Assembly (NCBI GenBank): GCA_037447435.1 | Contig: JBBIGR010000001.1 | Location: 96,001 to 160,000 of the forward strand | Length of the DNA stretch: 64,000 bases | Direction of reading: 5' to 3' | Source of the DNA: Fibrobacteria bacterium | GTDB taxonomy: Bacteria > Fibrobacterota > Chitinivibrionia > Chitinivibrionales > FEN-1185 | Part shown: one piece after another, positions 43,901 to 60,858 of the stretch | Layout of the letters: each line of letters opens with the position of its first letter | Numbering within the stretch: position 1 is the first letter of the stretch | Position numbers and translations under genes: made by a program | Notes under the pieces: generated by a model | Told to the model about the DNA's origin: nothing | What the model saw: the letters and a program-made list of their open reading frames with translations, nothing else | Database searches by the model: none

Positions 43901-43906
43901 ACTCCT

Positions 43907-43940
43907 TAGGTTGAATACAACACCCCTCTCACAGGATGAT
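43907..43940. repeat. Copy C of the shared CACCCCTCTCAC element, in the 5' leader of the propeller operon
   Basis: TAGGTTGAATACAACACCCCTCTCACAGGATGAT; the 21-mer ACACCCCTCTCACAGGATGAT is identical to 44238-44258. Confidence 0.85.
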
Positions 43941-44194
43941 TTTGATCTTGCTTTTCTCCTTCTCCTTTGCAGTCCTGCACCTCCATTTTGTTTATTTTTA
44001 TAGAAACTTTAATTATGTGTGCCTTTTATTTTTTCCAGCAGGCACTCTTCAATTGAATTTTGCTAACTAAATTATCCCGAGAATGTTTGTTTAGGATATT
44101 ATCTTTATTTGTTTTGTGTTAAAAACCTTTGAAATAATGAATGTTATGGTTATAATTATTGAATCAAAGCTATCGGGCAAAATTTAAATAAAAC

Positions 44195-44229
44195 ATGTCC
44201 CGAAACGAATTTTAATTTCGTTATATAGG
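44195..44229 (+). promoter_or_regulatory. Putative ECF promoter A: ATGTCCC-N17-CGTTATATAGG
   Basis: Both boxes and the 17-nt spacer are identical at 56298-56332; spacer sequences differ. Confidence 0.65.
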
Positions 44230-44298
44230 CAGGATACACACCCCTCTCACAGGATGATCGCCCGTTAAACGGCGGTTATGTGTACTCCTGCTTTTTTT
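44229..44298 (+). ncRNA. Candidate structured sRNA / attenuator leader A
   Basis: GCAGGATACACA (44229-40) pairs with TGTGTACTCCTGC (44279-91); inner hairpin TGATCGCC/GGCGGTTA; unpaired CCCCTCTCACAGGA; ends in T7. Confidence 0.5.
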
Positions 44299-44393
44299 AT
44301 CCCCTATTGCCTTTTTGTTAAATCTCCTTGCAGTTTCATTTTTAAAAATTTTCATTGTTGCACTTTATTTTTGAAAAAGAATAGGATTGCGTT

Positions 44394-46505
44394 ATGATAA
44401 TTTCCACTGGTGTTCTTGGATGTTTTCTTCTCTGCGCCGCTCCTGCCGATTCCCAGCAGGATACCTATAAATTCGATACACTGATTGTTACTGCCAAGCG
44501 GAAGATCGCGGCGGATGCTCAAAGCGAACAAATCGTGCCAAGTCTCGGCGCGACAAAACGCACCATGAACAGAGAACAGATCGCTGATCAGTCGCAGGGA
44601 GACAATGCCTCGTTCGATCAAACACTGTACCGCTTTCCCGGGGTAGTGCAGGATGAGCTTGACAAAAGGTTGCATGTCCGCGGTGAAGAGGCGAACCTGC
44701 AATACCGGATCAACGGTGTGCTGTTGCCCGACGGACTACTGGGTTTTGGCCAAGAGCTCGGCACTCGATTTATCGATCAATTGTCGCTCATTGTGGGCAC
44801 ACTTCCTGCCCAATTCGGCGGGCGTACGGCCGGAATCGTCGATATTCGCACAAAGAGCGGTGCCGACATGAACGGTGGCGATCTATCGCTGTACGGCGGG
44901 AGCTTTGGCACCGTGAATCCGTCGGTAGAATACGGCGGAGCAAGCGGTAACTGGACCTACTATGCAACCGGAAATTTTTTATACGACGGCATCGGTATGG
45001 CCAATCCGACAAACAGCGTCACGCCACTCCACGACAACACCTATCAGTACAAGGGATTGACTTCTTTATCCTGGTTCATCGACAATTCGAGCAGACTCAG
45101 CATCATCGTAAGCGGCGCCTACAGCCGTTTCCAGCTACCGAATATTCCCGGCCAAACGACCAATTACACCGACGATTCACTTGCCTCATTCAACTCTTCG
45201 TTGCTCGACGAGAACCAGACTGAACAGAGTTACTACGACATCGTTTCGTATCAGAAAAAAAGCGGCGACCTAAGTTATCAAATTTCGCAGACCGAACGCT
45301 ACAGCGATGTGCTGTATATGCCGGACAAAATCGGCGATATGATGTTCAATGGTGTTGCGGCCCGCGCCGAGCACAGCCTGAGCGCTTTCGGGCTGACAAT
45401 TGATGCAAGCGACGAACTGGACGACAGCCACACACTCCGCGCCGGCGCAAGTTTAACTATCGACAATGCCGATGTCGCGACATCGAATTCGGTCTTTCCT
45501 GCAACCTGGAACGACACGATATGGGCACAGACCGGCTCGACGCCCTACACCATAGACGACGACAACAAGAAAACGGCCTGGCTTTACAGTTGTTACCTCC
45601 AGGACGAATGGAAACTTGCGAAGGAACTGACGGTCAATTACGGCTTGCGGTTCGAGGGGCTCAACGCATATCTTGACGAATATCAGCTCAGTCCCCGGAT
45701 CAACATAGTGTACCAGCCGTTTAAGCCCACGACCCTTCACCTTGGCTATGGCATGTATTTCACGCCGCCGCCCATCGAATTCGTGCCGCCTTCAAGCATC
45801 AGAAAATTTGACAATACCACGTACGGTGCGGACCCGAACAACAACACGAGTTCGCAGGTGAAATCGGAACGCTACCATTATTTCGACGCAGGCGCTACGC
45901 AGGAAATCACCACAGGCCTGGAGATGGGCATTGACGGATATTATAAGCTCAAGAAATACACCCTTGACGAAGGCCAATTCGGTCCGGCTATGATTTTTTC
46001 GCCCAATAACGCGGACCAGGGCTATGTGCGTGGCGTTGAAGTAACGCTCAACTACAACGGTAAAACTGTTTCGGCCTATGGAAACGTCGCGTTCAGCCGG
46101 GCCATGGCCTATGGCCTGGTGTCGGGCGAATTTCAATTCGCGCCCGACGAGATCGACTACATGCGTTCGCATTGGTATCACCTCGATCACGATCAGGATA
46201 TCACCGCCTCGCTCGGCGCAGCATACAAGTTTGCGGGCGCCCGGGTCTATGGCGATCTTCTGTACGGCAGCGGTTTGTACGGCGGTCAATACAACACGCA
46301 GGAGGCGCCGCAGTATGTGACGGTCAATGCGGGTATCGAGTACATGCTAACGCTTTTGGGTAAAAACAAATTGAAGGCCCGATTCGACGTTGTCAACGTG
46401 TTTGACCTAGTGTATGAAATCCGGGACGGTGACGGTATCGGTGTTTTCGCACCTCAATATCTTCCACGGCGTGGGTTTTATGGAGGTTTGGTATGGGAAT
46501 TTTAA
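44394..46505 (+). CDS. TonB-dependent outer membrane receptor
   Basis: Signal peptide; TonB box (DTLIVTA); plug (PGV...LHVRG); YLQDEW, NYGLRF; C-terminal NVFD...WEF. Confidence 0.92.
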   Translation: MIISTGVLGCFLLCAAPADSQQDTYKFDTLIVTAKRKIAADAQSEQIVPSLGATKRTMNREQIADQSQGDNASFDQTLYRFPGVVQDELDKRLHVRGEEANLQYRINGVLLPDGLLGFGQELGTRFIDQLSLIVGTLPAQFGGRTAGIVDIRTKSGADMNGGDLSLYGGSFGTVNPSVEYGGASGNWTYYATGNFLYDGIGMANPTNSVTPLHDNTYQYKGLTSLSWFIDNSSRLSIIVSGAYSRFQLPNIPGQTTNYTDDSLASFNSSLLDENQTEQSYYDIVSYQKKSGDLSYQISQTERYSDVLYMPDKIGDMMFNGVAARAEHSLSAFGLTIDASDELDDSHTLRAGASLTIDNADVATSNSVFPATWNDTIWAQTGSTPYTIDDDNKKTAWLYSCYLQDEWKLAKELTVNYGLRFEGLNAYLDEYQLSPRINIVYQPFKPTTLHLGYGMYFTPPPIEFVPPSSIRKFDNTTYGADPNNNTSSQVKSERYHYFDAGATQEITTGLEMGIDGYYKLKKYTLDEGQFGPAMIFSPNNADQGYVRGVEVTLNYNGKTVSAYGNVAFSRAMAYGLVSGEFQFAPDEIDYMRSHWYHLDHDQDITASLGAAYKFAGARVYGDLLYGSGLYGGQYNTQEAPQYVTVNAGIEYMLTLLGKNKLKARFDVVNVFDLVYEIRDGDGIGVFAPQYLPRRGFYGGLVWEF

Positions 46506-46514
46506 TAGGCAATA

Positions 46515-46952
46515 ATGGAGGTTCGCATGGCTTGGCTTAAAGCTGTTGTCGACTACGGAATAATTGGGCTGCTTGTCCTCATGAGCATTACCGCGGTCGC
46601 TATCACGCTTGAACGATGGAGCGTCTTACGTCGGGTTCGCGTTTCCGAGTATACGGACAAACGCGAACTTGAGTTGATTATCACCCGCAAGTTGCATTTG
46701 ATCGCGACCATCGGCAGCAATGCGCCGTATATCGGGCTTCTGGGAACCGTGCTCGGCATCATGCTGACGTTTTATACCATGGGCGAACACGGGTTAATGG
46801 ACTCCACTAAAATCATGACCGGACTTGCCCTGGCACTCAAGGCGACCGCAATGGGACTGGTCGTGGCCATCCCGTCCATCGTATTCTATAACGTGCTCCT
46901 CCGTAAAGTCAAGGTCATTTTATTGCAATGGGACATCCGCCATGGAAGATAA
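46515..46952 (+). CDS. exbB: ExbB (short type) TonB-system energizer
   Basis: IATIGSNAPYIGLLGTVLGI, ALKATAMGL..AIP. Confidence 0.92.
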   Translation: MEVRMAWLKAVVDYGIIGLLVLMSITAVAITLERWSVLRRVRVSEYTDKRELELIITRKLHLIATIGSNAPYIGLLGTVLGIMLTFYTMGEHGLMDSTKIMTGLALALKATAMGLVVAIPSIVFYNVLLRKVKVILLQWDIRHGR

Positions 46953-47319
46953 GCAATTCGATTATATCAATATCATCCCGTTCGTGGACATCATGCTCGT
47001 TTTGCTCACGATCGTGCTTACCACTTCCACCCTCATTGCCACCGGTGTTATCCCGCTGTCTTTGCCGCAGGCCTCGAAGCAGCTCGGCGAAAAACAGGTA
47101 CTGCGCGTCATCGCGATCGACAAAAACGGCACGGTGTATCTCGACGCCGTGCCGATGTGCATGAACAAACTGAGAGACGAACTCGGTCTTGTTGACAAAA
47201 GCAATCCGCTGATGATCCGTGCCGATAAGACCCTTGCATTGCAGCAGTTTGTCGACGTTCTGGACGCCGTCAAGCAACTCGGATTCGGCAAGGTCAGCTT
47301 GCAAACGGAGTCGCTGTGA
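46942..47319 (+). CDS. exbD: ExbD biopolymer transporter
   Basis: ATG 46942; INIIPFVDIMLVLL, LPQA, IRADK. Confidence 0.92.
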   Translation: MEDKQFDYINIIPFVDIMLVLLTIVLTTSTLIATGVIPLSLPQASKQLGEKQVLRVIAIDKNGTVYLDAVPMCMNKLRDELGLVDKSNPLMIRADKTLALQQFVDVLDAVKQLGFGKVSLQTESL

Positions 47320-47969
47320 AACGCCAGGTTGGTTGTTTCGGTGTATCGGTGCTGGTGCACGCTGCCATTGCAATTGCAGCAATCGCGTTTTGCAGTTTTT
47401 TTTATGCTGAACCGAAAACCACGGTCATAGATTTATCGTATATCAATAACTCCCCGGTAATTGCTGCGGCGGTCCCGAAAAAAGTTCCAAAAAAATATCC
47501 GGCAACGCCACAGCTTTTGCCAGCGTCAGAGATCGCGCAGGAAGTTTTTCCCGACACGACCGGGCCCGACACTTCCGAAAACGTACCTCGCATCCCGTCA
47601 CTTATTGCCACAAGTAAGGACATCGCATCCTCATTGTCAACGCCTGCACTTGTTGCGGATAATGAACGGGATTCGGCCAATGGGCAGAAAAACGCCTATC
47701 TTCTTGCTAATTACGGCGCCATACGGGACAGAATTTATAATAGAGTATCGTTTCCGTCTGAGGCAATAGACATGGGGTGGCAGGGCAAGGTGCAGCTCGC
47801 GTTCCTGGTGCAAATGGACGGCCGGGTGGATAGCATCCGCGTTTTGGCAAGTTCCGGATATCATGTTCTGGACCAGAGCGCAATTGATGCAGTGAAACGA
47901 GCGGGCCCGTTCCCGAAATCCTCCCAAAAGGTCGAAATACGATTGCCGATTTCATACAGATTCGAATAG
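47316..47969 (+). CDS. tonB: Energy transducer TonB
   Basis: SVLVH TM motif; FP..A...GWQGKV, SSG..VLD.SA..AV, PISYRF. Confidence 0.88.
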   Translation: MKRQVGCFGVSVLVHAAIAIAAIAFCSFFYAEPKTTVIDLSYINNSPVIAAAVPKKVPKKYPATPQLLPASEIAQEVFPDTTGPDTSENVPRIPSLIATSKDIASSLSTPALVADNERDSANGQKNAYLLANYGAIRDRIYNRVSFPSEAIDMGWQGKVQLAFLVQMDGRVDSIRVLASSGYHVLDQSAIDAVKRAGPFPKSSQKVEIRLPISYRFE

Positions 47970-47974
47970 AAACT

Positions 47975-48691
47975 TTATTCTTTGCGTGCAATCGAAACGA
48001 TTTCATTTTTAAGCAAATTGCCGATGCGAACACGGAGATCGTCCTGAATCGCGCTTACCGGCTGGTCGGCATTGATAACGTCGAATTTGTATTTTTTTTG
48101 CAGGCTTTCGAAGACCTGATTAATTAGGCGTTGATATTTATCGAAACAATCGAACCAATCACGCGAAAGCGACATGTCCATGCCCGATTCCCAATAATCA
48201 AGTTTCTGATGCGATTTCAGCGTACGTAACGCAAGCTGCTCCGGCGAAACCTTGAGAAAGTAAACCGCATCCGGTGAAATTGCGCGGGAATACAGGGATT
48301 CGACCCATTGCGGTTCTGCGCCCCGAACCAGGTCGCGGGCCATGAGCGTGAATATATACCGGTCGGCAATGACGATTGACCCGGCACACAGCGCCGGCAC
48401 AATGTCGTTTTCCATCTGATCGTAAAAATCCGCTGCATAAAAAAGGCTCCGCGTGCGCGGACTGAGCACATTCCCCTGTTTTGCTTTTTCGAGTTCATTG
48501 CCCACAAGTGCCGACCGTTTGAGTCCTACCTGGACAACCGAGCAGCCGGCCTGTTCTATCCAGCGCGACAGATGAGCAATTTGCGTTGAGCGGCCCGAGG
48601 CATCCGGACCTTCGATGACAATGAGTTTTCCTATGAGACGGGAAAGTTCCACCCCCGGCGGCGGCATGGCCAGGCATTTCGCAGTACTCAT
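47975..48691 (-). CDS. Thymidylate kinase-like protein (paralog 2)
   Basis: IVIEGPDASGRST P-loop, DRYIFT, PDAVYFL. Confidence 0.8.
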   Translation of the reverse strand: MSTAKCLAMPPPGVELSRLIGKLIVIEGPDASGRSTQIAHLSRWIEQAGCSVVQVGLKRSALVGNELEKAKQGNVLSPRTRSLFYAADFYDQMENDIVPALCAGSIVIADRYIFTLMARDLVRGAEPQWVESLYSRAISPDAVYFLKVSPEQLALRTLKSHQKLDYWESGMDMSLSRDWFDCFDKYQRLINQVFESLQKKYKFDVINADQPVSAIQDDLRVRIGNLLKNEIVSIARKE

Positions 48692-48692
48692 A

Positions 48693-49382
48693 TCAGTCTT
48701 TTCTTTCTTTGAAACGTTTCAGGTCTATGACCTTTTGAATCTTTTGTCGAATCAAATGCTGCTGCTGGGAAATCGTCAGAGTTGCATCTGTCAAATTAAA
48801 ACCGTGTTCATTTGCCATTTGAAGATATTCATTGTGCAGCCGGCCCTGGAAAAGGCGATAACTTTCCAAAAGGTCCTGGGAAAGCTTGAGGTCCATGCCG
48901 GCATCGAAATACGAGGGTTCTATTCGCGCGTCGTGAAGCCGTTCCATTGTGAGATGGATAGGCAAATCAAGATAAAAAACCAAATCCGCAGGGATTGCAA
49001 ATTGATAAAGTCCGTGCAGCCAGGCTTCATCGCAACCGCGGACGCGGTCTACCGCATAGGGAGTATAAATATAACGGTCGCATAAAACAATAAACCCGCC
49101 CTTGAGCATGGGCAGGATTTGCCTGTCGTAGCGATCGGCAAAATCCGTTGCATTGATAAGGCTGAATGTTGTCGGGGTGAGCATTTTGGATTTTTTTCCA
49201 CGCCGATACACCTCGTTGACGATTTCGCTGGTGTTCCATTCGCTGTAAAACACGCGGCATTTGAGGCCGGTTAGCCATTCGTACAATAAATGCGCCTGTG
49301 TTGACTTTCCTGACCCGTTAAGGCCCTCGATGGCAATGAGTGCACCCGGATATTTATGTTCCTTGCTATTTCCTTTCATCAC
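48693..49382 (-). CDS. Thymidylate kinase-like protein (paralog 1)
   Basis: IAIEGLNGSGKST, CDRYIYT, ADLVFYL. Confidence 0.82.
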   Translation of the reverse strand: MMKGNSKEHKYPGALIAIEGLNGSGKSTQAHLLYEWLTGLKCRVFYSEWNTSEIVNEVYRRGKKSKMLTPTTFSLINATDFADRYDRQILPMLKGGFIVLCDRYIYTPYAVDRVRGCDEAWLHGLYQFAIPADLVFYLDLPIHLTMERLHDARIEPSYFDAGMDLKLSQDLLESYRLFQGRLHNEYLQMANEHGFNLTDATLTISQQQHLIRQKIQKVIDLKRFKERKD

Positions 49383-51276
49383 TCAATCCTCCTATGAAAC
49401 AGCGGTCCTGGACACGGAGTTTTTTATGATCGTATTTATCGAGCGACCGTTGTTCCATTCGCTTAAGTATGGAATCAAGCATAGTAACGGCGCTGTCTAT
49501 GTATTCTCCTTTATTGAGCATGACGCATTCGGCCCGGACGCTCATGGCCGCATCGCTTATTTCCGCACGCGACGGCATGCCGGTTTTTGCAAGATTTTCA
49601 AGCACCTGCGTTGCCCAAATGACCGGCACGTGGGCTGCTTCACAACAAAGAAGAATCTCGTCTTGCGCTTCGGCGAGATTGTCGAAACCAAGCTCTACGG
49701 CCAGATCTCCGCGTGCAATCATGACGCCGATGGGATGAGACGCCATTGCAGACAAAAGAAGCGACGGCAGCCGTTTGATTGCCAGCCTGGTTTCTATTTT
49801 AAGTACGACACCGAGGCTTGCGCTTCCTAAACGGCTCAAATGCCGTTGCAAAGAAACAATATCGGATGGTGAACTGACAAATGAGAGCGCCACAATGTCG
49901 GCATGCCGCGCGATGAAAGCGAGGTCGATAACGTCTTTTTCGGTTAGGCCCGATGTGGAAAGTTCGCTGTCGGGCAGATTGATGCCTTTATCGGCTCGCA
50001 GCCTGCTTCCCTGGGGTTTTGCTGCAGTAATCGTAATGCAAACTTTTTGAGCAGAAACCGATTCAACGACGCCCGTGATTTTACCATCGTCTAGGCAAAT
50101 CCTTTCGCCGGGTTCGATATCGGCAAACACCTCCGGCAAGGTGCATGAAATGGTTGCGGGTGAAAGAAGTCTGCCGTTTTTGGCCCGACGGGCTGTTTTG
50201 CCGGGTTTAATTTGAGCAGAAAGAACAAGCGTATCGCCTGGTTTGAGCAGGATGAATTCCTCGGTGCATGGAAGAGTCGCGACTTTACCGGTGGAAACAA
50301 GCGATTTGGTCCTTCGGAAAATATGGAATTCGGTATCGGGTACGATATAGCCGGTCATTTCCGACTTGGCAAGGCATCCCATGCTGTGCTTTTGGGTGAC
50401 ATCCATACGCCGCAGGCGTTTGCGCGCATCGCGATACATCAGGACATCACCGGTTTTCAGATTTTTATGCCATCCGCTTCGCACAGGGATGGCTGTTGCT
50501 GCTTTTTCCGGAGAAGTTGAAATGGCCGTTTCATCACAGAGCCAGACCGTGCACGGCTTGACAATTGCGCCGAGAGCGTTTCTTGTTGGCCTGATTTTTA
50601 TTACCTGAGGGCCGGGAGAAAGCGGCCCGGTACGCAACTTCGGGCCGCCCAGGTCCATTAAAATCCTGCAGTGTTTGCCGACGTCCTGTGCGGCGCGCCG
50701 AACATTATCGCACATGCGTCTCCATACGGTTTCGTCGTCATGGGCACAGTTGATACGTGCGCAATCCATGCCGTTTTCAATAAGTTTTTTAACTTTTGCA
50801 TAGTCAGTTGCGGCGTCGCTTGCCAATGTAACCATGATGCGGCCCCGACGGTTTTTGGGCGGCGGTCCAAAAAGTGCCTCGGTATGCGCATCCAATAACG
50901 AATGCCCCTGTTCATAGGTTACCTGACGGGAATACGACCCCGTGAGCAGGCCTGGACGGTCTAAAAGGGTATTAAGCAGACGCATCACCGATAATATGCT
51001 GGCCAAAACATGCGATTCGCTTCTGCCAAGCGATGAAAAACCGAATGATGAAAGTGCGTTTCTCATGGGAAAAAGGTCGTGTCGTAAAAGCGCGAGATAA
51101 TGAAGAAAATTGCGGGCGCTGGTTTCATACGCGCGATGGAGCTTATTGATGCGGGCGGTATGTGTGGCTTCATAGTCAAGCAGGTCCTGCATGATCGCCT
51201 GTAGCTTTTGTGCTAAATCTGCGGCTTTATCCGGGTCAAAATCGTGAAAACGATGGTTTTTCTTTTTAATGGTCAT
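49366..51276 (-). CDS. pyk: Atypical long-form pyruvate kinase
   Basis: ARINCAHD, DLGGPKLRTG, KGINLP, LKIET, ARGDLAVE, ATQVLE, RAE.SD, VMLNKG; N-terminal SARNFLHYLAL extension; start taken at ATG 51276. Confidence 0.85.
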   Translation of the reverse strand: MTIKKKNHRFHDFDPDKAADLAQKLQAIMQDLLDYEATHTARINKLHRAYETSARNFLHYLALLRHDLFPMRNALSSFGFSSLGRSESHVLASILSVMRLLNTLLDRPGLLTGSYSRQVTYEQGHSLLDAHTEALFGPPPKNRRGRIMVTLASDAATDYAKVKKLIENGMDCARINCAHDDETVWRRMCDNVRRAAQDVGKHCRILMDLGGPKLRTGPLSPGPQVIKIRPTRNALGAIVKPCTVWLCDETAISTSPEKAATAIPVRSGWHKNLKTGDVLMYRDARKRLRRMDVTQKHSMGCLAKSEMTGYIVPDTEFHIFRRTKSLVSTGKVATLPCTEEFILLKPGDTLVLSAQIKPGKTARRAKNGRLLSPATISCTLPEVFADIEPGERICLDDGKITGVVESVSAQKVCITITAAKPQGSRLRADKGINLPDSELSTSGLTEKDVIDLAFIARHADIVALSFVSSPSDIVSLQRHLSRLGSASLGVVLKIETRLAIKRLPSLLLSAMASHPIGVMIARGDLAVELGFDNLAEAQDEILLCCEAAHVPVIWATQVLENLAKTGMPSRAEISDAAMSVRAECVMLNKGEYIDSAVTMLDSILKRMEQRSLDKYDHKKLRVQDRCFIGGLSDERK

Positions 51277-51844
51277 AAAAATTAAAAATATATTGTCATC
51301 GTAAGGCAACAAAGCGCTAACACAATACTAACAATCGGCTCGTTAAAAGCTATGCAGATAATAAGCTCCGGGAAAGTAGTTTCTACAGGTAATTTGTTGC
51401 TCTGATTTTCACTTGGTTACAGGCAATTATCAGCGAGATAGATAGGAATCTGCGCCAAGGGGAATGCCGTTTCCGGACGGAAGTTGCTCAAGTGCAAATT
51501 CAAGCAATGATCCTTTTGCAATCACATGAATTTCGGGTATTCGTTCATGAAAATATCGCAGCGATTGGATTGCTCGTTGAGCAAGTTATTAATCTATTAT
51601 TTGTTCTTTATTCAAGCCGTATTCCATAACGTCGTATTTCCCGAATTAAAACCCGGTTTATTTTCACGGAAAATTGAGAAAAAAAATAAAAGGAACTACA
51701 GCAATAAGGCTAACAACCACCCGACGGTGTGTTTGAGCGCTAACCAAATTCTAACTACGCCGAAATAATCAACGCATGGCCAAGGTTCATATTATTAAAA
51801 ATTCAATTTATCCTGCTTACAAACCCTTTGTCAAAGAGTGTTTT

Positions 51845-54556
51845 ATGATTAGGTTTCGTCCGCTCATTGCGGCAATTACTGTTTTTACCAGTATATTTTG
51901 TTTATCTAACATCAACGCTCAAGCTGTGCTTTGGAATCAAATTTACACTGGTTTAGACGCTTCGACAGCTCATTCAATTTGTCAAACGCCAGATAATGGT
52001 TTCTTTGTAGTAGGATCAATATGTGATTCAGGCGGGATATCAAAAGCCATTTTCCTGAAAACCAACTATTCGGGAAACTTGATGGGTCAAAAATCCGTTT
52101 CACAAGGAAACACCGTTGCATACGATTGCAAACCTACTTTTGACCGGTGTTTTGTTGTCACAGGATATGTAACCGATTCCTTGGAAAACGAGAGTATAGG
52201 CATTGCAAAATACGATTCTATGGGCAGTCAGTTGTTTTTCACTTATTTGAAAGGCATTGGAAGCAATCGCGCATATTCCATTTCACAAACACCGGATTCC
52301 GGGTTTCTTGTTGGCGGGTACACAACGATGGTTCAAGCGGCAGATACCGATATTATAATTGCCAAAATTGACAAGAACGGAGAAGTTCAATTCACAAAAA
52401 CTTTTGGTGGTATAGGCTGGGACTGTTGCTATGCGTTGATGGCAATGGGTGACGGTGGGTGTATGGTAACTGGAGGAACAACCTCCTACGGCCAGAATGG
52501 CGGCAAAGATTCTTTTCTTGCAAAGCTTGACGTATCAGGATCAGTAATCTGGTACAAAGTATATGGAGGTACGGGAGATGACATCGCCTATAACTTGACA
52601 TCCGCAAATGACGGCGGCTATGCGTTGGTCGGCAGCACAACTTCCTTCGGCCCAGGTCAGAAAGCATTCCTGCTCAAGACCGACTCCAATGCAAACTATC
52701 AATGGCACAAGACCATCGGCGGCAGCTCTTCTGACGCAGCCTATGGCGTTGTACAATTGCCGGATAGCGGATTCATGGTTGCGGCAAATTTGCCGTCGAT
52801 TTCGACTGACAGCGCGGCTATGGCTATCACAACAAATGCGAATGGCGACAGCAAATGGTCTGCAAAATTCAATGGATTTGTGACAGTTGGAGGATCACCG
52901 TTGACCAAATGCCCAGAACAACGAATTGGCTTTTTATACACCCGTTTTCAAGCAGGAGACACTGCAATCGGGTTAGCCACCATTTCCTCAAACGTGAGCA
53001 TGCCGGGAGTTATCAAAGTTTCGGCGGGGTACAATTTCAGCCTGTTTCTTAGAAACGATGGGAGTCTTTTTTCCTGCGGATATAACTATTCCGGTCAACT
53101 TGGGGATGGAACAACAACCGACCGTTCCACTCCAATCTTGATGATGAACGATGTCATTGATATGGCTGCCGGTGGTAATCATGTTCTTGTTCTCAAGAAG
53201 GATCAAACCCTTTGGTCATGCGGTAGTAATAGCTCGGGACAACTTGGTGACGGATCAACATTCGACAGGCATATTCCTTTACAAGTAATGACCAATGTGA
53301 AAACAATGGCAGCTGGTAACAGTCATAGTCTCATATTGAAAACCGATGGAACGCTCTTAAGTTGCGGTTTCAATGGCTATGGCCAATTGGGTGATGGTAC
53401 GACATCAGATAAGGCTATTCCTAAATTAGTTTTTAGTGGCGTTCAAGATATTGCTGCCGGTGAGCATCATAGCCTAATTTTAAAGACTGATGGAACCCTT
53501 TGGTCATGCGGCTATAATTATTATGGACAACTCGGAAATGGTACGACGGAAAACATCTTATCGCCAGTTGAAATTCTATCTAATGTCCAGAGCGTCTCAT
53601 CCGGATGGGATTATAGCATGATTTTGAAAAAGGACAATACTCTTTGGGCATGTGGAATGAACAACTCTTATCAATTGGGTGATGGTTCAACAACTAACCG
53701 ATCAACTCCTATGATGGTATTGTCAAACGTTTCCAATGTTGTTGCCGGATACTGGAATACTATGGCGTTCTTGACCAACGGAGACCTTTGGGCTTGCGGA
53801 AGCAACTATTCCGGTCAAATCGGAGATGGCACAACGGCAAGCCGAGCTACCTTCACAATGAATATGAGCGGCATTCAAAGTGTTGCTGTAAATTACGGCC
53901 AAAGCCTATTTCTCAAATCAGATGGAACATGTTGGGCCGCGGGTGATAATTACTATGGTGAATTAGGCGATGGGACTAATATTGACCATTTGTCCCCCGT
54001 ACAGCTTCAAGTTGGCAATTTGCAACCATCGGGACCTTCAATAACTATGCAACCTCAAGACCAATCCGATACCGAAGGGCAGACTGCAAGATTCTGCATC
54101 ACCGCGACCGGAACTAATCTTAATTATCAATGGCAGAAAAACGGAACCAATATTCCTGGTGCTACTTCCGCGTGTTATGTCGGTTCGGCCTTATCGCTTA
54201 CTGATGATGGCAGCATATTCCTGTGCGTCGTGAACAATGTTGTTGGGAGTGTAACAAGTAGTGGCGCCACACTCAGAGTATTTCCTTCAACGCCTGTTGC
54301 ACCTCATTTTATTTTACAGCCTTATTCACAAATTGTAACAGCTGGTTCCATGGTGTCTATGACAGCTATTGCATCTGGCAATCCTTCCCCAACGTATCAA
54401 TGGAAAAAAAATGGGAAAAATATCTCTGGCCTAAACTCTCCTCGACTTACGATTCACGACGTAGACACGTCGGATGCCGGATCTTATACTTGTGTAGCCA
54501 CCAATTCTTTGGGAAGCGTTGAAAGTAGGCCGGCTGTGTTGATAGTAAATCCATAA
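51845..54556 (+). CDS. Secreted protein: N-terminal propeller + RCC1 repeats + two Ig domains
   Basis: Signal peptide from ATG 51845; W.KT.GG...D....DGG repeats; seven G.N..GQLGDG repeats; YQW.KNG..I.G Ig motifs. Confidence 0.85.
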   Translation: MIRFRPLIAAITVFTSIFCLSNINAQAVLWNQIYTGLDASTAHSICQTPDNGFFVVGSICDSGGISKAIFLKTNYSGNLMGQKSVSQGNTVAYDCKPTFDRCFVVTGYVTDSLENESIGIAKYDSMGSQLFFTYLKGIGSNRAYSISQTPDSGFLVGGYTTMVQAADTDIIIAKIDKNGEVQFTKTFGGIGWDCCYALMAMGDGGCMVTGGTTSYGQNGGKDSFLAKLDVSGSVIWYKVYGGTGDDIAYNLTSANDGGYALVGSTTSFGPGQKAFLLKTDSNANYQWHKTIGGSSSDAAYGVVQLPDSGFMVAANLPSISTDSAAMAITTNANGDSKWSAKFNGFVTVGGSPLTKCPEQRIGFLYTRFQAGDTAIGLATISSNVSMPGVIKVSAGYNFSLFLRNDGSLFSCGYNYSGQLGDGTTTDRSTPILMMNDVIDMAAGGNHVLVLKKDQTLWSCGSNSSGQLGDGSTFDRHIPLQVMTNVKTMAAGNSHSLILKTDGTLLSCGFNGYGQLGDGTTSDKAIPKLVFSGVQDIAAGEHHSLILKTDGTLWSCGYNYYGQLGNGTTENILSPVEILSNVQSVSSGWDYSMILKKDNTLWACGMNNSYQLGDGSTTNRSTPMMVLSNVSNVVAGYWNTMAFLTNGDLWACGSNYSGQIGDGTTASRATFTMNMSGIQSVAVNYGQSLFLKSDGTCWAAGDNYYGELGDGTNIDHLSPVQLQVGNLQPSGPSITMQPQDQSDTEGQTARFCITATGTNLNYQWQKNGTNIPGATSACYVGSALSLTDDGSIFLCVVNNVVGSVTSSGATLRVFPSTPVAPHFILQPYSQIVTAGSMVSMTAIASGNPSPTYQWKKNGKNISGLNSPRLTIHDVDTSDAGSYTCVATNSLGSVESRPAVLIVNP

Positions 54557-54736
54557 TCATTAGTCTTTTACGAGGGTTTTAATCAATTCCTAACTTTATC
54601 TGTACTTAAACCTAACTTCTACAGCCTTATTTTAAAATCTTGCCGAATTTTTAACATCACGAATCTTACCATATAAGATGATGACTTATTGCATAAAAGT
54701 AAACACAAAAAATCATGGATGAATTAAGGAAAAAAA

Positions 54737-56236
54737 ATGAATAAAACACAACGATTTCTTCTTGGGGCTGCTCTGCCACTTTTGTTTGCAATAGCGGCAA
54801 ATGCCGCTATAAATGCCAGGATAACCGTGACGCAGGCAAAGCTCGACAGTGCCTGCGGTACGCATAACATTAAGGTCGCTTTTATATGTCAAAACCAGGC
54901 ATATATTCTCGACTTTTCCCAGACTACGCCCCAAATACAAGCAATGGCTGGTGTTACAAATGCATATTATCCTGTTATTTCTCCGGAAGGGCAATTAGTA
55001 ACCTATCAAACCGGAGTTGAGTCCGACGGAGCTTCAACAAGTCTTATAAAGGGAAAAGTTTGGATGAGAGAAGCTGCTGCAACCGGAACACCTGTTCTTG
55101 TTGCAGACTCGGCATTTGTGCCGCGATTTGTTTTAAATACGCCGGTAAGCGCTCCGGAAATTGTTTATGTGACAAGCATCACCTGTCCTCAGCAGATTTG
55201 CTACACGGAGGGAAAGACGCTTAAAAGAAAAATTGTAAATATGGTTCCGCAAGCTGCGGAAGTCATATGTGGTTCAGGTAGTTATTATGGTGGAATTTCC
55301 TGGGACAACCGCTATCTGTGCACAGGCTGGGACGGCGGTCCGAACGCGTTCTTATTGGATTTACAAAACAGTAATGGTACGCCCCGCGGTATCCATTTCT
55401 TGCATGTGAAGAAAATCGGCACAAATGCCGACACTATTGTGCGGATAGGCGTATGCAATATTTCGCGTTCTGCAAGCAGAGTATTTACCAATGCAATGCT
55501 TTATTTTGATTTCGGATCCTATGCCGTCAAAGATGCGGGTTGTTATAATCCGTTGCTCGGATCATGGGATTTGCATCAGAAACTTTTTATTTCACGGTAC
55601 GATTCCGAAGATTTGAAGGTTTTTGAGACTCCTGCGGATAAAAAAATCATTTCCTCGGATTCATCGCAAGGCTTGGGCGAGGCGATTGGAAAAGAATGGG
55701 ACTTTCCCGAGTGGTCGAATCATCCTTATTATGCCGTTGCCAGCCTCTTGGTTGACAGATTGTTCCAGGTTTCGGGCGATTGGCAGCACGTTCAAAACAG
55801 GGAGGCAATATATCTTGTAAATCTGAAAGACTCCAGTTATATCAAACTTCTTGAAACAACAGACACGTCATATACTTCAAAAACATCTTTTTTTTATCCC
55901 GGTTTAAATGTCCAGTTGCCTACAAATTTTGTTGAAGACAGTACCTGGCTTTCAAAAACAATCTGGGAACGCGCGAGCCAGGGCATTGCGCACCCTATCC
56001 CGATTAATTATGCTAGAAGAAACAAGACGGCTCTTGGTATTAACGCGAAGCACGATCCTGTGAACGTGACCATTTATTCGGTGCTTGGCCAAAAGCTTTT
56101 GTCGATGACTCAATCAACTGACTTGGCCTTGAATGTAGACGATATGGCAAAGTCCTTTCGATCAGGCATTTATTTTATTGGCGTTTCGGCTGAAGGCAAA
56201 AAACAGCAAATTGTTCGTTGGGTAAAATGCCACTAA
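54737..56236 (+). CDS. Secreted protein with TIGR02171-like propeller domain and T9SS-like tail
   Basis: Signal peptide; ISPEG, VCNIS, YFDFG, EWSNHP, NLKDSSY motifs shared with 1187..4255; IYSVLGQ...SGIYFI tail. Confidence 0.7.
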   Translation: MNKTQRFLLGAALPLLFAIAANAAINARITVTQAKLDSACGTHNIKVAFICQNQAYILDFSQTTPQIQAMAGVTNAYYPVISPEGQLVTYQTGVESDGASTSLIKGKVWMREAAATGTPVLVADSAFVPRFVLNTPVSAPEIVYVTSITCPQQICYTEGKTLKRKIVNMVPQAAEVICGSGSYYGGISWDNRYLCTGWDGGPNAFLLDLQNSNGTPRGIHFLHVKKIGTNADTIVRIGVCNISRSASRVFTNAMLYFDFGSYAVKDAGCYNPLLGSWDLHQKLFISRYDSEDLKVFETPADKKIISSDSSQGLGEAIGKEWDFPEWSNHPYYAVASLLVDRLFQVSGDWQHVQNREAIYLVNLKDSSYIKLLETTDTSYTSKTSFFYPGLNVQLPTNFVEDSTWLSKTIWERASQGIAHPIPINYARRNKTALGINAKHDPVNVTIYSVLGQKLLSMTQSTDLALNVDDMAKSFRSGIYFIGVSAEGKKQQIVRWVKCH

Positions 56237-56297
56237 AAAGTAAAACCTGGTTGTCCTTATCTGAGGAAACCATTTTCCTGAGTTGAGCATAAAATAA

Positions 56298-56332
56298 ATG
56301 TCCCCAATCCGTTTTCTTGCCCGTTATATAGG
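56298..56332 (+). promoter_or_regulatory. Putative ECF promoter B: ATGTCCC-N17-CGTTATATAGG
   Basis: Same boxes and spacing as 44195-44229; upstream of the mod operon. Confidence 0.65.
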
Positions 56333-56392
56333 TGAATATGCACCCCTCTCACCGGATCTTAGTTTTACGATGATCCAAGCCCTTATTTTTTT
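56331..56392 (+). ncRNA. Candidate structured sRNA / attenuator leader B
   Basis: GGTGA/TCACC stem exposing CACCCCTC; GGATC/GATCC stem; T-tract 56386-92. Confidence 0.4.
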
Positions 56393-56560
56393 ATTTTGCC
56401 GTTTTATCCCGTAATAATCGTATGTAAATATTTATCATAGGCAAAATTGGTATGACTGATCAAATCAAAGCAAAATCCTAATGAATTATTAACAATGTCC
56501 CGGTAATTTAATGACCATGTTTAATTGGAGGCTGCATTTCTTATTTATGGGAGCCCAATT

Positions 56561-57346
56561 GTGTGTAGATTTTTTCGTCGTGGCATCAAATTGTTCGTTT
56601 CGTTTTGTCTGGTGTTCTTTTATGTTGTTGGTATTTCTGCAGAGGAAAAGAAACCGCAAAGTTCCATTCTGGTCCATTGTGCAGCGGGAATGCGTAAGCC
56701 CATAGAACTGTGTGCGAAAAAATTCGGGGATTCGATGGATATCGCCGTACAGCTTTCCTATGACGGTTCGAACCGACTGCTCGGACAAATAGAACTCACT
56801 CATAAAGGTGATGTTTACATTTGCGGAGACGCCGAGTATGCGGACAGCGCAAAAGTCAAGGGGCTTGTAGGCCAAATGGGGACGATATGTTGGTTTTCAC
56901 CGGTAATACTTGTTAAAAAAGGAAATCCTAAAAAAATCCTCTCAATGGCCGACCTTACAAAGCCGGGTTTAAAAATCGGTCAGGGTGATGAAAAATCCGC
57001 AGCAGTCGGAAAAATCGTTCCGAAATTGCTTTCTTTAAATACTGTCGATACGGATCTGTGGAAAAAAAATGTCGTTCTCGTAACTCCAACGGTTACTGAA
57101 CTGGGAAACGCAATGAAACTGGGTACCGTTGATGCGGTTATTATTTGGAACAGCATTGCCCAAGGGTATAAAGACGTTGGAGAAATAATTCCGATCACTA
57201 AAAAAGTTGTTTGCTCGGTCGAGGCCGTCGCGCTTTCGACAAGTACAAATAAGAACGTTGCGCTTCAATTCCTTGATTTCCTTACAAGACCTTCAGGCAG
57301 GAAAATCCTCTCTGATGCCGGATATTCTGTTGACAATAGCGATTAA
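56561..57346 (+). CDS. modA: Molybdate/tungstate ABC substrate-binding protein (ModA-like 1)
   Basis: GTG 56561 with GGGAG RBS; CAAGMRKP, YDGS..L..QI, GDVY, KGNPKKI, GTVDA. Confidence 0.75.
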   Translation: MCRFFRRGIKLFVSFCLVFFYVVGISAEEKKPQSSILVHCAAGMRKPIELCAKKFGDSMDIAVQLSYDGSNRLLGQIELTHKGDVYICGDAEYADSAKVKGLVGQMGTICWFSPVILVKKGNPKKILSMADLTKPGLKIGQGDEKSAAVGKIVPKLLSLNTVDTDLWKKNVVLVTPTVTELGNAMKLGTVDAVIIWNSIAQGYKDVGEIIPITKKVVCSVEAVALSTSTNKNVALQFLDFLTRPSGRKILSDAGYSVDNSD

Positions 57347-57349
57347 CAC

Positions 57350-58189
57350 ATGAAAATCAAAGCATTCCCAATTCTTTTTTCCATACCGCTTGCAATTCTG
57401 ACCGGCGCCATAACCCTTATCATCATAGCCGATATTTCATACGTGCATAAAAGCGATATTATATCGACATTGCTTTCCAAGGATATCGTCTCGTCCATGA
57501 TTCTCACATTGGAAACTTCAATACTGACGACAGTCATTTCGGTCATCATTGCGGTGCCAAGCTCCTATGCCCTGAGCCGTTTCAAGTTTCCCGGCGCTTT
57601 TGTTCTGGATACACTGATAGACCTATTGATTGTTGTGCCGGTTCTGGTCGTCGGCGTCAGCATCTTGGTTTTTTTCCGCATGGGCTTTTTATTGGAATCC
57701 AGCCCGTTTCCGCCTGCCGTACTCGTAGGTAAAGTGATTCAATGGCTTGGGGATGTCTTTATTTATCAACGTGCAGGCATAGTGCTCGCCCAATTTTTCT
57801 GTTCGGTCCCTTTTGCAGTGCGCGTTATAAAAAGTACCTTCGATGATATGAGTCCACGAACCGAACATGTTGCGCAGACTCTGGGATGCAGTCGTCGTCA
57901 GGCTTTTTTCAAAGTAAGCCTCCCCCTTGCCAGTCAGGGGATATTTGCCGGTGCCGTACTTGCATGGGCCCGGGCATTTGGGCTGTTCGGTCCCATTTCC
58001 ATTGTTGCCGGTGCGGTGCGGCAAAAAACAGAAGTCCTATCCACCTCTATTTTCCTGGAAATTTCTATTGGTCAGCTAGAAACAGGGATTGCACTTTCGC
58101 TATTGATGGTGGTTATCGCAAGCGCAATTCTGATGCTGTTAAGAATTGCTTCGGGAAAAACGCTTTTCGGAGGAAAGGTGCAGGTATGA
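57350..58189 (+). CDS. Molybdate/tungstate ABC permease (ModB/WtpB-like)
   Basis: YALSRFKFPG, EHVAQTLG EAA-like loop, WARAFGLFG. Confidence 0.82.
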   Translation: MKIKAFPILFSIPLAILTGAITLIIIADISYVHKSDIISTLLSKDIVSSMILTLETSILTTVISVIIAVPSSYALSRFKFPGAFVLDTLIDLLIVVPVLVVGVSILVFFRMGFLLESSPFPPAVLVGKVIQWLGDVFIYQRAGIVLAQFFCSVPFAVRVIKSTFDDMSPRTEHVAQTLGCSRRQAFFKVSLPLASQGIFAGAVLAWARAFGLFGPISIVAGAVRQKTEVLSTSIFLEISIGQLETGIALSLLMVVIASAILMLLRIASGKTLFGGKVQV

Positions 58190-59229
58190 TTGAAATTTCG
58201 AATCTGCGCCACAAAGCCGGCGAATTTCAGCTTGGAGTAAATCTCATTATTGCTGCAGATGAATATTTTGTCCTTCTGGGAAAAACCGGATGCGGTAAAA
58301 CATTACTGTTGGAATGTTTGAGCGGTTTGCGAGAATGCGAAAACGGTTCATCAATCAAAATTAACGGACGCACAATTACATTTGCGGAACCCCGTGAGCG
58401 GTCGATCGGGTATGTTCCTCAGGAAGGCGCACTTTTTACCCATCTCAACGTATTTGAGAACATCGCATTTTCACTCAGGGTCACTCGTATTGAAAAATAC
58501 GATATCGTAAGGCGTGTCGGACAAATTGCCGAGCTTTTAGGTATTTCATATCTTCTTACGCGGACTATAAAAGGGTTATCGGGCGGCGAGCGACAGCGGG
58601 TGGCTCTTGCCCGGGCTCTCATCCGAAAACCGTCGGTGCTGCTTCTCGACGAACCGGTGAGCGCCCTTGACGAAGGCACACGCGACGCCGTATGCGCAGA
58701 ACTTCTTACCATTCAACGGGAAATGAAAATTCCGGTTATCCATGTGTGCCACAGTTTCGATGAGGCATCCATCCTTGCCGATCGTGTGGGCATAATGCGT
58801 AACGGCTCAATTGCACAGCAAGGTACCTTGGAAGAGGTATACCGATTTCCGCTCGATGCTTATGTGGCAAGGATGATGCGACTCGAAAACATTTTTACCG
58901 CAAGTCTTACGCCGGAAGGAAAATTGTCCGCCAACGGCTTTGTCCTGTCTGCCGAACCAATCAACGGTTTCAGGAAATTCATCATACATCCGCACCTCGT
59001 TCGAATTGCGAAAAGCAATAATCATAACCCGGATATGCCGAACAGGATGAGCGGTATTGTAAAGGAACTGCATCGACGGGGAGCAATAACGGGCATTGTT
59101 CTGGACGGCCCTCTTTTATTGACCCTGTATGCAATGCCCGATGAGATCGAAGAAACAGGGATAGTGCGGGGAAAAGAAATCTCAGTGACTTTTCCCGCAC
59201 AAGCAATACATATGCTTACCGATGAATAG
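58186..59229 (+). CDS. ABC ATP-binding protein (ModC/WtpC-like) with TOBE-like tail
   Basis: ATG 58186 overlapping the permease stop; GKTGCGKT, LSGGERQRV, LLDEP. Confidence 0.88.
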   Translation: MIEISNLRHKAGEFQLGVNLIIAADEYFVLLGKTGCGKTLLLECLSGLRECENGSSIKINGRTITFAEPRERSIGYVPQEGALFTHLNVFENIAFSLRVTRIEKYDIVRRVGQIAELLGISYLLTRTIKGLSGGERQRVALARALIRKPSVLLLDEPVSALDEGTRDAVCAELLTIQREMKIPVIHVCHSFDEASILADRVGIMRNGSIAQQGTLEEVYRFPLDAYVARMMRLENIFTASLTPEGKLSANGFVLSAEPINGFRKFIIHPHLVRIAKSNNHNPDMPNRMSGIVKELHRRGAITGIVLDGPLLLTLYAMPDEIEETGIVRGKEISVTFPAQAIHMLTDE

Positions 59230-59232
59230 CCA

Positions 59233-60090
59233 ATGACAAGGAGCAAATTGATGAAACTATCGTCGCGGAAAACGATTTCGCTTTTATTAGTCGCAACAGC
59301 AATTATAGCCACGTTTATTTCTTGCTCCCCAGACAAAGGCGATAAGCCTTTGTTATGCTTTGTTGGCGGAACAATGCGCCCGGCCATGGAGGAACTTGTC
59401 AGACAATATCAGACAAAGCATCCTCTCAAGGTTGACATCGACTATGCCGAAAGCGGCGAGCTTTACGTCCGTATAGACCAGACGCATAAAGGCGACATTT
59501 TTGTTTGTCATGATCCTTTCGGCGGTGCGGCAAAAAGGAAAGGTCTGGTCGTTACGTCTTTGCCGGTTGCCACTTTGGACCCGGTCATTGTCGTTGCAAA
59601 AGGAAACCCTAAAAATATACACGGCATTATGGACATGGCAAAACCCGGTATCAAAGTCATATTTACCCATGAAATGTACAACGAAATGAACCTTGTCCCC
59701 CGCATGGCGGAACGCGCCGGCGTGCGCAAACAACTTGATTCGAATTGCGCCTCGTTTTCCTGGGGCGGCGGCGAGTCGGCCAATGAGCTTTCGCTTGGTG
59801 CGGCGGACGTTTCTATTGTTTGGAATGCCGTGGCGGCGCTCCGCACCGATATCGTCGATATGGTTCCCATTGAAAAAGGCCTTCATTTGCAAAGCAATAC
59901 CGATGCAATCACCTGTGCGACCTACGGTACGGTCGATTTATCTACAATCAAGGTAACCGCTAATGTTTTGAAATGGTCGAAAAATGCGAAAGCGGCTACC
60001 GCATTTGCCGAGTTTTGCGCTTCAGACGAGGCACAGAAGGTTTGGACAAAGTTCGGATTTTCTCCGCGTCGAGAAAAGTTTCTTGAATAA
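59233..60090 (+). CDS. Molybdate/tungstate substrate-binding lipoprotein (ModA-like 2)
   Basis: Lipobox-like FISC; GGTMRP, YAESGEL, KGNPKNI, ADVSIVWN. Confidence 0.75.
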   Translation: MTRSKLMKLSSRKTISLLLVATAIIATFISCSPDKGDKPLLCFVGGTMRPAMEELVRQYQTKHPLKVDIDYAESGELYVRIDQTHKGDIFVCHDPFGGAAKRKGLVVTSLPVATLDPVIVVAKGNPKNIHGIMDMAKPGIKVIFTHEMYNEMNLVPRMAERAGVRKQLDSNCASFSWGGGESANELSLGAADVSIVWNAVAALRTDIVDMVPIEKGLHLQSNTDAITCATYGTVDLSTIKVTANVLKWSKNAKAATAFAEFCASDEAQKVWTKFGFSPRREKFLE

Positions 60091-60114
60091 ATATTCTTTA
60101 ATAGGATACCCTAA

Positions 60115-60858
60115 ATGAAACTGTTTCTGTTTATTGCACTCTTATGTATTGCCCCTGTTAGGTCTCAGATAATCATTGCCGCAGCATCTTCAATGCAGAA
60201 TGCTTTAAACCAGGCTTTGCCTGTATTTGAAAAAGCAACCGGGAATACGGCAACGGTCGTGTACGGATCTTCGGGAAAACTTTTGGCCCAAATAAAAAGC
60301 AATGCGCCTTATGACGTTTTCTTGTCTGCCGACATGGCGTTACCCGAAAGTCTGGCCGTGGCAAAATTGACCGACGGCAAACCCGTCGTCTATGCCCGCG
60401 GGACGCTCGTACTTTGGACGCTTAAAACCATCGACTTGTCGAATGGCAAAAAAGCGCTTCTCGATTCGAATTGCTATAAAATAGCCGTAGCAGACCCGCG
60501 GACCGCGCCCTACGGAAAAGCTGCAATCGCGTTTTTACAAAGCGAAAAAATATTCGCTTTGATCGAGAAAAAACTCGTTTATGGAGACAATGTTTCCCAG
60601 GCAGCCCAATACATATTGACCGGTTCGGCCGATTTGGGCATAATGGCCAAATCCCTTGTCGTTACTCCGGAAACGCTCAATAAAGGACATTGGGTTGAAA
60701 TCCCCGCAAGCTCCTACCCCGCAATCGATCATGGCATGGTGCGTTTATTGCAAGGAATGAAAAAAAATCCCGAAGCAAGCAAATCATTTTACGATTTTAT
60801 TCTCTCGGATAAAGGGCAGGAAATCCTCGTGAATTGCGGTTTCACATCGATCAAATGA
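60115..60858 (+). CDS. modA: Molybdate ABC substrate-binding protein (canonical)
   Basis: AAASSM, YGSSGKL..QI...APYDVFLSAD, P..APYG.AA, GDNVSQA. Confidence 0.92.
   Translation: MKLFLFIALLCIAPVRSQIIIAAASSMQNALNQALPVFEKATGNTATVVYGSSGKLLAQIKSNAPYDVFLSADMALPESLAVAKLTDGKPVVYARGTLVLWTLKTIDLSNGKKALLDSNCYKIAVADPRTAPYGKAAIAFLQSEKIFALIEKKLVYGDNVSQAAQYILTGSADLGIMAKSLVVTPETLNKGHWVEIPASSYPAIDHGMVRLLQGMKKNPEASKSFYDFILSDKGQEILVNCGFTSIK

Follow-up and report, generated by a model that had tools for sequence, protein, structure and literature searches.

The window analysed here is a 64,000-nucleotide stretch from a Fibrobacteria bacterium (GenBank assembly GCA_037447435.1, contig JBBIGR010000001.1; genome G000 below), and our subject is a short repeat that it carries three times around an operon encoding an extracytoplasmic function (ECF) sigma factor. 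Two copies, A and B, lie within candidate small RNAs (sRNAs) preceded by ECF-type promoters, and the third, C, places the complementary sequence in the leader of the sigma-factor operon, whose first gene encodes a large beta-propeller protein. The features concerned are the following.

43913..43941, minus strand: leader stretch, -47 to -19 relative to the ATG at 43894, with which RNA A is predicted to pair
43921..43938, minus strand: target hairpin CAUCCU-GUGAGA-GGGGUG, loop at 43932-43927, its 3' strand resembling a Shine-Dalgarno (SD) sequence
43906..43920, minus strand: predicted mini upstream open reading frame (uORF) TTG TAT TCA ACC TAA, its stop overlapping the main SD TAAGGAG (43908-43902)
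44196..44225, plus strand: ECF-type promoter A (-35 TGTCCC, 17 nt, -10 CGTTATA), a motif enriched at homologous ECF loci
44228..44298, plus strand: candidate RNA A, about 70 nt, with closing stem P1, seed, inner hairpin P2 and U7 tail
56299..56328, plus strand: ECF-type promoter B, TGTCCC at 56299
56330..56392, plus strand: candidate RNA B, about 63 nt, a degenerate sibling with seed, one hairpin and U-run, without P1
40133..43894, minus strand: first gene of the target operon, encoding a 1253-aa beta-propeller (PQQ_2) protein with a malectin domain at its C-terminus
39023..40054, minus strand: conserved hypothetical protein, 343 aa, no Pfam match, nearest Atlas clusters mostly Planctomycetota
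38431..39006, minus strand: ECF sigma factor, 191 aa, sole member of its family in the genome
37007..38440, minus strand: predicted anti-sigma factor, N-terminal zinc-finger-like (zf-HC2) region plus beta-propeller (PQQ_2)
34955..37220, minus strand: FtsX/MacB permease and ABC ATPase, end of the operon
44394..47969, plus strand: TonB-dependent receptor, exbB, exbD-like gene and tonB, downstream of promoter A
56525..63815, plus strand: modA/modB/modC-like ABC transporters, TauE, MoaD-like and MoeB/ThiF-like genes, downstream of promoter B
44129..44156, plus strand: sigma-70-like promoter match (11/12) upstream of promoter A; 3 such sites vs 1.9 in shuffles, not above chance

The 17-mer CACCCCTCTCAC(A/C)GGAT is found at 43921 (copy C), 44239 (A) and 56341 (B), each time on the plus strand, in agreement with the original prediction; the distance to copy C is 318 nt for A and 12.4 kb for B, and matches with up to three mismatches average 0.06 in shuffled sequence. 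The fear expressed with that prediction, that the element could be a generic repeat scattered genome-wide, is dispelled, as the three window copies are the only exact 17-mers in the 5.05-Mb genome, where a whole-genome scan returns 14 matches, 11 of them with three mismatches. When one mismatch is allowed, the only three non-self matches in 61 genomes are all within open reading frames (ORFs). An 18-mer searched in 296 genomes gives, outside G000 and two genomes described below, scattered singletons only (three of them looked at), and viral contigs give 0 matches, and 1 match inside an ORF that is taken as chance. The 8-mer core CCUCUCAC, hereafter the seed, is counted 31 times in G000, for an expectation of about 0.006 per intergenic gap of that kind.

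Copies A and B are indeed preceded, as had been proposed, by a common ATGTCCC-N17-CGTTATATAGG motif (TGTCCC at 44196 and 56299), with a gap to the seed of 9 nt for A and 8 nt for B. RNA A, in the leader of the TonB-dependent receptor operon, leaves its seed (44242-44249) largely unpaired, has a predicted fold of -27.5 kcal/mol (z -4.95 to -5.5) equalled by 0/200 shuffles, and ends in U7. The hairpin with an open C-rich stretch and a T-run that had been described for both copies is thus recovered for A. RNA B, in the leader of the modA-like operon, departs from that description: half of its seed is paired in the minimum free energy structure (mean unpaired 0.56 vs 0.69 in A), its fold is weak, and its U-run, which begins 9 nt past the hairpin, is a poor terminator. 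A predicted promoter and terminator are both present at A, and the sigma-70-like match could be a second possible route into this RNA. No known RNA family had been recognised in the element, and a covariance-model scan of the window with Rfam 15, which includes the molybdenum cofactor (Moco) riboswitch and C-rich sRNAs, likewise gives no match at the gathering threshold; scans by E-value return eukaryotic or snoRNA noise only (E 1.6-4.7).

Related elements in other genomes

G017 and G023, which belong to one genus of another family than G000, have the same layout of two RNA-like elements and one complementary site, their loci having been fetched by the ECF gene or the promoter motif and not by the seed. 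In each of them, CCTCTCAC occurs three times upstream of the propeller gene: on the plus strand after the anti-sigma gene, which itself follows the ECF-type promoter, in a free-standing divergent element (the minus RNA) which starts with GGCAGG as RNA A does, and as the complement in the propeller leader. Conservation beside homologous operons, which the original prediction had asked for, is therefore seen in both genomes, and the G017 propeller protein is 42-53% identical to that of the window. The element consists of a closing stem, the unpaired CCUCUCAC, an inner hairpin and a U-rich tail.

The four elements of G017 and G023 fold like A, and five of the six members have z values of -3.9 to -5.0. 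Across the six, 82.7% of the stem cells are paired, 9/14 pairs are changed on both sides, and 0/500 shuffles score as high, so that the stems show covariation, which had been suggested as a check on homologous intergenic regions. This covariation is suggestive of a conserved fold, with six related sequences and no probability meant. The seed is invariant in the two elements of each of the three genomes, with a mean unpaired value of 0.56-1.0. Homologous intergenic RNAs with a single-stranded seed are thus found together with a complementary site near the translation start of a separate mRNA, as for trans-acting siblings. Only one alignment column besides the seed is invariant, and there is hence no aptamer-like core.

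This last point bears on the idea that A and B could be cis-acting attenuators or riboswitches (for molybdate, tungstate or Moco) of the uptake operons, copy C being a by-product. Both RNAs do have a promoter before them and uptake genes after them, and a U-run closes A; termination at A is shared with the sibling-sRNA explanation, and a dual role is possible. The elements of G017 and G023, however, have no uptake gene downstream, the receptor-modABC leader of G017 has the promoter but no element, and the seed is found in 0/9 other leaders behind ECF-type promoters. The missing aptamer-like core and Rfam match also speak against a riboswitch, which does not account for the conservation of the antisense site. 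The elements of the relatives being apart from uptake genes and the seed absent from the other leaders, we hold this alternative, already raised in the original prediction, to be highly improbable; the shared operator raised with it is weakened by the same facts.

An RNA model built from the six members, which match it by construction, finds no further intergenic member in 81 genomes of the order or in 5 others (60-150 candidates scored per genome); weak matches in G050, G245 and G079 are inside ORFs and were dropped. A metagenome scan for the ECF gives 80 loci, and the element is in none of the 8 examined by script or the 4 examined by RNA model. Additional CTCACAA copies are seen upstream of the minus RNA (L061:7807-7826, L054:2972-2981); in G023 they form a direct repeat of 11 bp. 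Such copies could serve for pairing with the target or the seed, or as a protein site.

Other ECF-linked loci show other arrangements. In G079, an opposite-strand ECF-type promoter is present just upstream of the propeller ATG (L156:1300-1442, G079:C69); a cis-antisense transcript of about 115 nt, covering the propeller leader and ending in a T-run, is predicted from it and is possibly a second solution to the same task. Seed depletion in G079 was considered as a signal and rejected, CTCAC words being generally rare in G000 as well. In G009 and G028, CCAAAC repeats are shared, in the same sense, by the propeller leader and the divergent leader driven by the ECF (L154:2130-2430, L155:2170-2470), possibly a case of protein-binding mimicry; the complementarity of the divergent ECF-driven transcripts of these two genomes to their own propeller leaders is not above that of shuffles.

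Predicted pairing with the propeller leader

The duplex predicted between RNA A and the leader has 27 bp, as originally estimated, 21 of them contiguous. Among 3704 predicted leaders, that of the propeller gene ranks first for both RNAs, with duplex energies of -49.6 kcal/mol for A (next -30.6) and -40.3 kcal/mol for B (next -33.1). RNA A has 21 contiguous pairs with its own leader vs 14 and 16 with those of the relatives, and the minus RNAs of G017 and G023 have 22-23 with the targets of their genus vs 12 with that of G000. RNA and target change together by lineage, with 21-23 pairs within and 12-16 across. The net binding is significant for four of the six members, namely A (-29.7 kcal/mol) and the two minus RNAs (-24.7 and -19.6 kcal/mol), for which 0/100 shuffled targets are as good, and B (-23.8 kcal/mol; 1/100).

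RNA and leader are thus a real, conserved and previously unlisted RNA-target pair. On sequence grounds, they probably constitute a base-pairing sRNA system. With less assurance, we lean towards A and B being trans-acting sibling sRNAs, likely transcribed by the ECF, whose seed is complementary to the loop of a hairpin in the leader of the ECF operon and which would likely repress it. The earlier proposal of ECF-driven siblings pairing with the operon of the ECF itself is supported in part, namely in its promoter, its unpaired seed and its single outstanding target; its mechanism is revised to the start of the uORF (see below).

The repeat might instead be a DNA operator of some transcription factor, the folds being incidental terminators. 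Two window copies stand directly after promoters, the minus elements of both G017 and G023 have further partial CTCACAA copies upstream, and TGTGAGG or GTGAGAGG adjoins an ECF -35 box in G009 and G013. The site is nevertheless non-palindromic, the seed invariably occupies a loop in a fold that covaries and its complement invariably a hexaloop, and the flanks of RNA and target co-vary by lineage. The 0/9 count in other ECF-promoter leaders also disfavours an operator, as does a search for ModE (TIGR00637), which has no match in G000 and a single sub-cutoff one, in G017, among 5 genomes. An operator is thus very unlikely.

A hairpin with a GUGAGA loop is found in G000, G017, G023 and G079, with 24/24 cells paired and 2 pairs doubly changed, and its loop costs at most 0.8 kcal/mol to open. 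In G079, the gene immediately preceding the ECF is a PEP-CTERM gene, which has the target site as its ribosome-binding site (RBS). This hairpin could be a self-contained translational control, protein-binding or thermometer-like and G-U-rich, with the antisense copies as local duplications under little selection. The hairpin of G079 without detected RNA, the G-U-rich stems and the presence of CsrA would fit, and local duplication would likewise yield lineage-matched sequences. Against this, two structured siblings with covarying stems are kept, at differing positions, in each of three genomes between which the propeller proteins are just 42-53% identical across lineages, and we give the idea very little credence. 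A search with the target pattern finds it in the 4 training genomes and in 2 ECF-less genomes, vs about 10 control matches. In the enolase upstream region of G017, TTGTGAGAGG is present with flanks like those of the target (L188:1481-1515, G017:C14), and this could possibly be a second target in that genome.

All three propeller leaders having the site contain an SD, a start codon and a short predicted uORF which abuts or overlaps the main RBS. Its length is 4 codons in G000, where its stop is within the main SD, and 5 in G023; in G017 it has 15 codons and overlaps the main ATG. Begun at an in-frame ATG at 43986, that of the window would reach 26 codons; the ORFs of the window leader (4-26 codons) are hydrophilic and not conserved. 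A strong SD-like GGAGG(T/A) is also seen 50-80 nt upstream of the target in the three leaders (window 43979-43985, minus strand; L054:3185-3200; L061:8055-8065) and at a similar place in G079 (L156:1373-1385). It has no consistent start codon, opens a chain of tiny ORFs in G017, and is possibly a standby or CsrA site.

Relative to the main ATG, the duplexes of the three leaders end at -19, -29 and -27. Binding takes the opening cost of the main RBS from 6.4 to 5.8, 4.7 to 6.1 and 8.1 to 8.6 kcal/mol. As the duplex stops short of the main RBS and barely alters this cost, direct occlusion and structural activation are both unlikely. Copy C had been placed just upstream of the propeller RBS; its complement is in the leader, but the predicted duplex misses the main SD (43908-43902) and covers the hidden uORF start instead. 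The best reading is that repression would act through the uORF or through decay.

One could also imagine that the RNAs pair with the leader but activate it, for example by removing a uORF ribosome that occludes the main RBS, or that they tune the first gene alone, without ECF feedback. As a rule, a long and nearly perfect duplex across a start site is repressive. This alternative would nonetheless agree with the overlap of the window uORF stop with the main SD and with the position of the ECF, which follows the target at a distance of two to five genes. An RBS closely upstream of another can repress it by occlusion (PMC13285730), and the ECF-driven sRNA GsrN activates its target (PMC5869019). 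The nearly constant opening cost of the main RBS leaves little room for structural activation, and the ECF-type promoter predicted to fire antisense over the propeller leader in G079 also points to repression, so that this alternative is judged unlikely.

The sigma factor and its surroundings

The ECF family is found in 12/296 genomes of the phylum, with one copy in G000. Loci linked to the ECF or the propeller gene, 191.5 kb in all, contain 11 matches to TGTCCC-N17-CGT(A/T) vs 0.6 expected (2 of them the window's own and 2 in loci chosen for the motif, which leaves 7), and other spacer lengths give 0-3 matches. The seven remaining sites are before anti-sigma genes, TonB receptors or the hypothetical gene, or divergent from the propeller gene. 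As homologous ECF loci again show the motif ahead of anti-sigma and uptake genes, it is likely to be the promoter of this ECF family. Genome-wide, it is not above control and is informative by position only. The minus strand ahead of the window propeller-ECF operon has no TGTCCC-N17-CGT, and the ECF operon of G013 does have a TGTCCC-type promoter.

The published ECF250 promoter, with a -35 of TGTCAC/TGTCCCTTT and a -10 of GTTATATA, is a prediction that our motif matches (-35 TGTCCC, -10 GTTATATA), and the proximity of a solute-binding protein and a BPD_transp_1 permease is likewise shared (PMC7826278). In that description, ECF250 is 100% Firmicutes, has DUF4367/DUF4179 anti-sigma factors and shows two conserved cysteines in sigma-2, whereas here the anti-sigma factor is zf-HC2 plus PQQ_2 and one Cys is invariant in an alignment of 17 sequences. 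By comparison with this published description, the differing host range and anti-sigma type exclude membership of ECF250. A scan of genome contigs with the ECF protein returns distant ECFs only, and two largely overlapping 151-genome samples, centred on G297 and G298, contain no member of the family. On a metagenome contig (L070:406-8092), the same ECF family is immediately followed by two ModA-like genes and modB/modC-like genes, a layout that supports a link of the ECF to oxyanion uptake in another sample.

The ECF is the third gene of the propeller operon, about 4.9 kb beyond the target site. Between the propeller and 343-aa genes lies a strong C/G-rich palindrome (40075-40110), which ranks second among the duplex partners of RNA A and has a repetitive extragenic palindrome (REP)-like look; G294 has palindromes of a similar kind (L174:2613-2745). 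No PDB relative of the propeller protein was found. G013 has ten matches to the propeller N-terminus (loci L153-L168), an expanded family of which several are near large regulator-like ORFs. TonB receptors and type IX secretion system (T9SS)-type tails are present in the host, whose gene content, together with a TIGR02171 match, points to the Fibrobacterota, and the genome encodes RNase III and CsrA. Elsewhere in the window, two tandem dTMP-kinase-like ORFs are next to a 648-aa pyruvate kinase-like gene (47975-51312), the mod cluster contains three ModA-like binding proteins together, and the mod transporters are followed by a MoaD-like gene and two ThiF/MoeB-like genes (62729-63815 and G000:C1:159894-160601).

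Possible regulation and relation to known systems

The pair could operate as follows. The ECF, which is co-located with TGTCCC-N17-CGT, would recognise this motif, and transcripts from promoters A and B would either read through to the uptake genes or terminate at the U-run, releasing an RNA of 60-70 nt. The open seed, whose complementarity is observed, is predicted to nucleate at the exposed GUGAGA loop and to zip to 21-23 contiguous bp. The duplex would cover the SD and start codon of the mini-uORF, and main translation coupled to it would be lost; both such coupling and occlusion of the main RBS are documented for short uORFs (PMC13285730). RNase III may in addition cut the long duplex. Finally, in what is the weakest step, polarity or mRNA decay would lower the ECF, a negative feedback acting beside the anti-sigma factor.

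This full uORF-feedback model is put forward tentatively. It would mean that an unclassified ECF/propeller-anti-sigma system on Mo/W-type uptake limits itself via a chaperone-free sRNA pair, which kisses the GUGAGA hairpin and shuts a 4-5-codon uORF licensing translation of the sigma operon, a possibility that we regard as real but doubtful. The sRNA pair would then be cut from transcripts of its own regulon, from 5' leaders here and from the anti-sigma 3' end in the relatives. The whole would be a chromosomal, trans-encoded counterpart of plasmid CopA/tap, with a cis-antisense RNA from the same promoter type in one relative instead.

A number of results weigh against the favoured reading of A and B as ECF-driven sibling sRNAs that repress the operon. 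The RNA is found in 3/8 ECF-bearing and 0/73 ECF-less genomes of the order, its model finds 0/3 in three further ECF-bearing genomes, and G017 and G023, being one genus, leave just two independent lineages. The ECF locus is itself patchy, as it is absent from 7/7 family members, and in G079 (87% complete, with a contig break in the locus) the target hairpin is present and the RNA is not found. RNA B has a weak fold (z -2.1 to -2.25; 4/200 shuffles as good) without the closing stem of the family. In G017 and G023, it is the minus RNAs that pair strongly, and they have neither a TGTCCC promoter nor any other recognised one; the net binding of their plus-strand siblings is not significant (-2.6, 11/100 shuffles; -3.2, 47/100). 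It had been argued from G-U pairing that the differences between copies reveal which strand acts as RNA: the three compatible differences are real, and bare duplex energy favours the proposed orientation in 6/6 pairs, but net energies after folding costs do not favour it. The covariation of the target hairpin is marginal (22/500 shuffles as high). The window uORF begins with TTG, at a start already sequestered in a stem that costs 6.7-10.5 kcal/mol to open. The strong hairpin between the first two genes makes co-transcription of target and ECF an assumption. Lastly, neither Hfq nor ProQ was found in the genome, which on the other hand fits long, chaperone-free pairing.

Known systems offer several likenesses. 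OmrA/OmrB of E. coli are also two siblings with a common 5' seed, linked to outer-membrane uptake, which repress the mRNA (ompR) of their own regulator; unlike the present pair, they are under two-component control and Hfq-dependent (PMC4211561). Here, one long near-perfect target with a uORF is seen, and there is no Rfam match. Pairing of CopA with CopT begins loop-first (kissing). In the CopA-CopT-tap-repA system of plasmid R1, an antisense RNA blocks a leader peptide coupled to the main gene, but CopA is cis-encoded and serves plasmid replication, whereas the present RNAs are chromosomal, paired, predicted to be sigma-driven, and 0.3 and 12 kb from their target (PMC12361487). GsrN of Caulobacter is an ECF-activated sRNA whose C-rich unpaired 5' loop pairs with a G-rich leader and whose homologs are typically near ECF genes; it differs in activating katG, in being stabilised by Hfq and in being shown without feedback on its sigma factor (PMC5869019). 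DonS-type RNAs of Bacteroides polysaccharide utilisation loci are divergent small RNAs that repress a locus for nutrient uptake, in a lineage with no obvious Hfq/ProQ, but DonS is cis-antisense to susC, whereas here pairing is in trans via a duplicated site, with a propeller-ECF target (PMC7366714). To DonS, the arrangement of G079 is the closer likeness. The system belongs to none of these four, DonS being its nearest uptake-locus analogue.

IstR-1/tisB-type pairs likewise have a divergent sRNA gene with a duplicated perfect complement of about 20 nt to the neighbouring leader. The leaders examined here differ in having no conserved small hydrophobic toxin ORF, and a type I toxin-antitoxin system was rejected for this reason. 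Cis-antisense control of the CopA/CopT type was rejected because A and B are not opposite-strand to the target, and RNA-guided transcription by dCas12f-sigmaE (PMC13472631) because the dCas12f/TnpB family PF07282 is found in 0/7 genomes and the seed is in the 5' half, not a 3'-end guide. No published description of this element was found in the literature searched, whose coverage leaves out most subscription journals.

If the proposal is true, the Fibrobacterota, for which no characterised sRNA was found in the literature searched, would gain an sRNA family together with the target, the promoter and the sigma factor belonging to it. It would provide direct sRNA feedback on the operon of the ECF itself, which GsrN, the best-studied ECF-driven C-rich sRNA, does not do, and plasmid-style uORF control acting in trans, on a chromosome in which neither Hfq nor ProQ was found. 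The lineage-matched pairs of 21-23 bp would be natural orthogonal parts, and the regulon would offer a first functional lead, towards oxyanion or metal uptake, for the large propeller-malectin family of unknown function.

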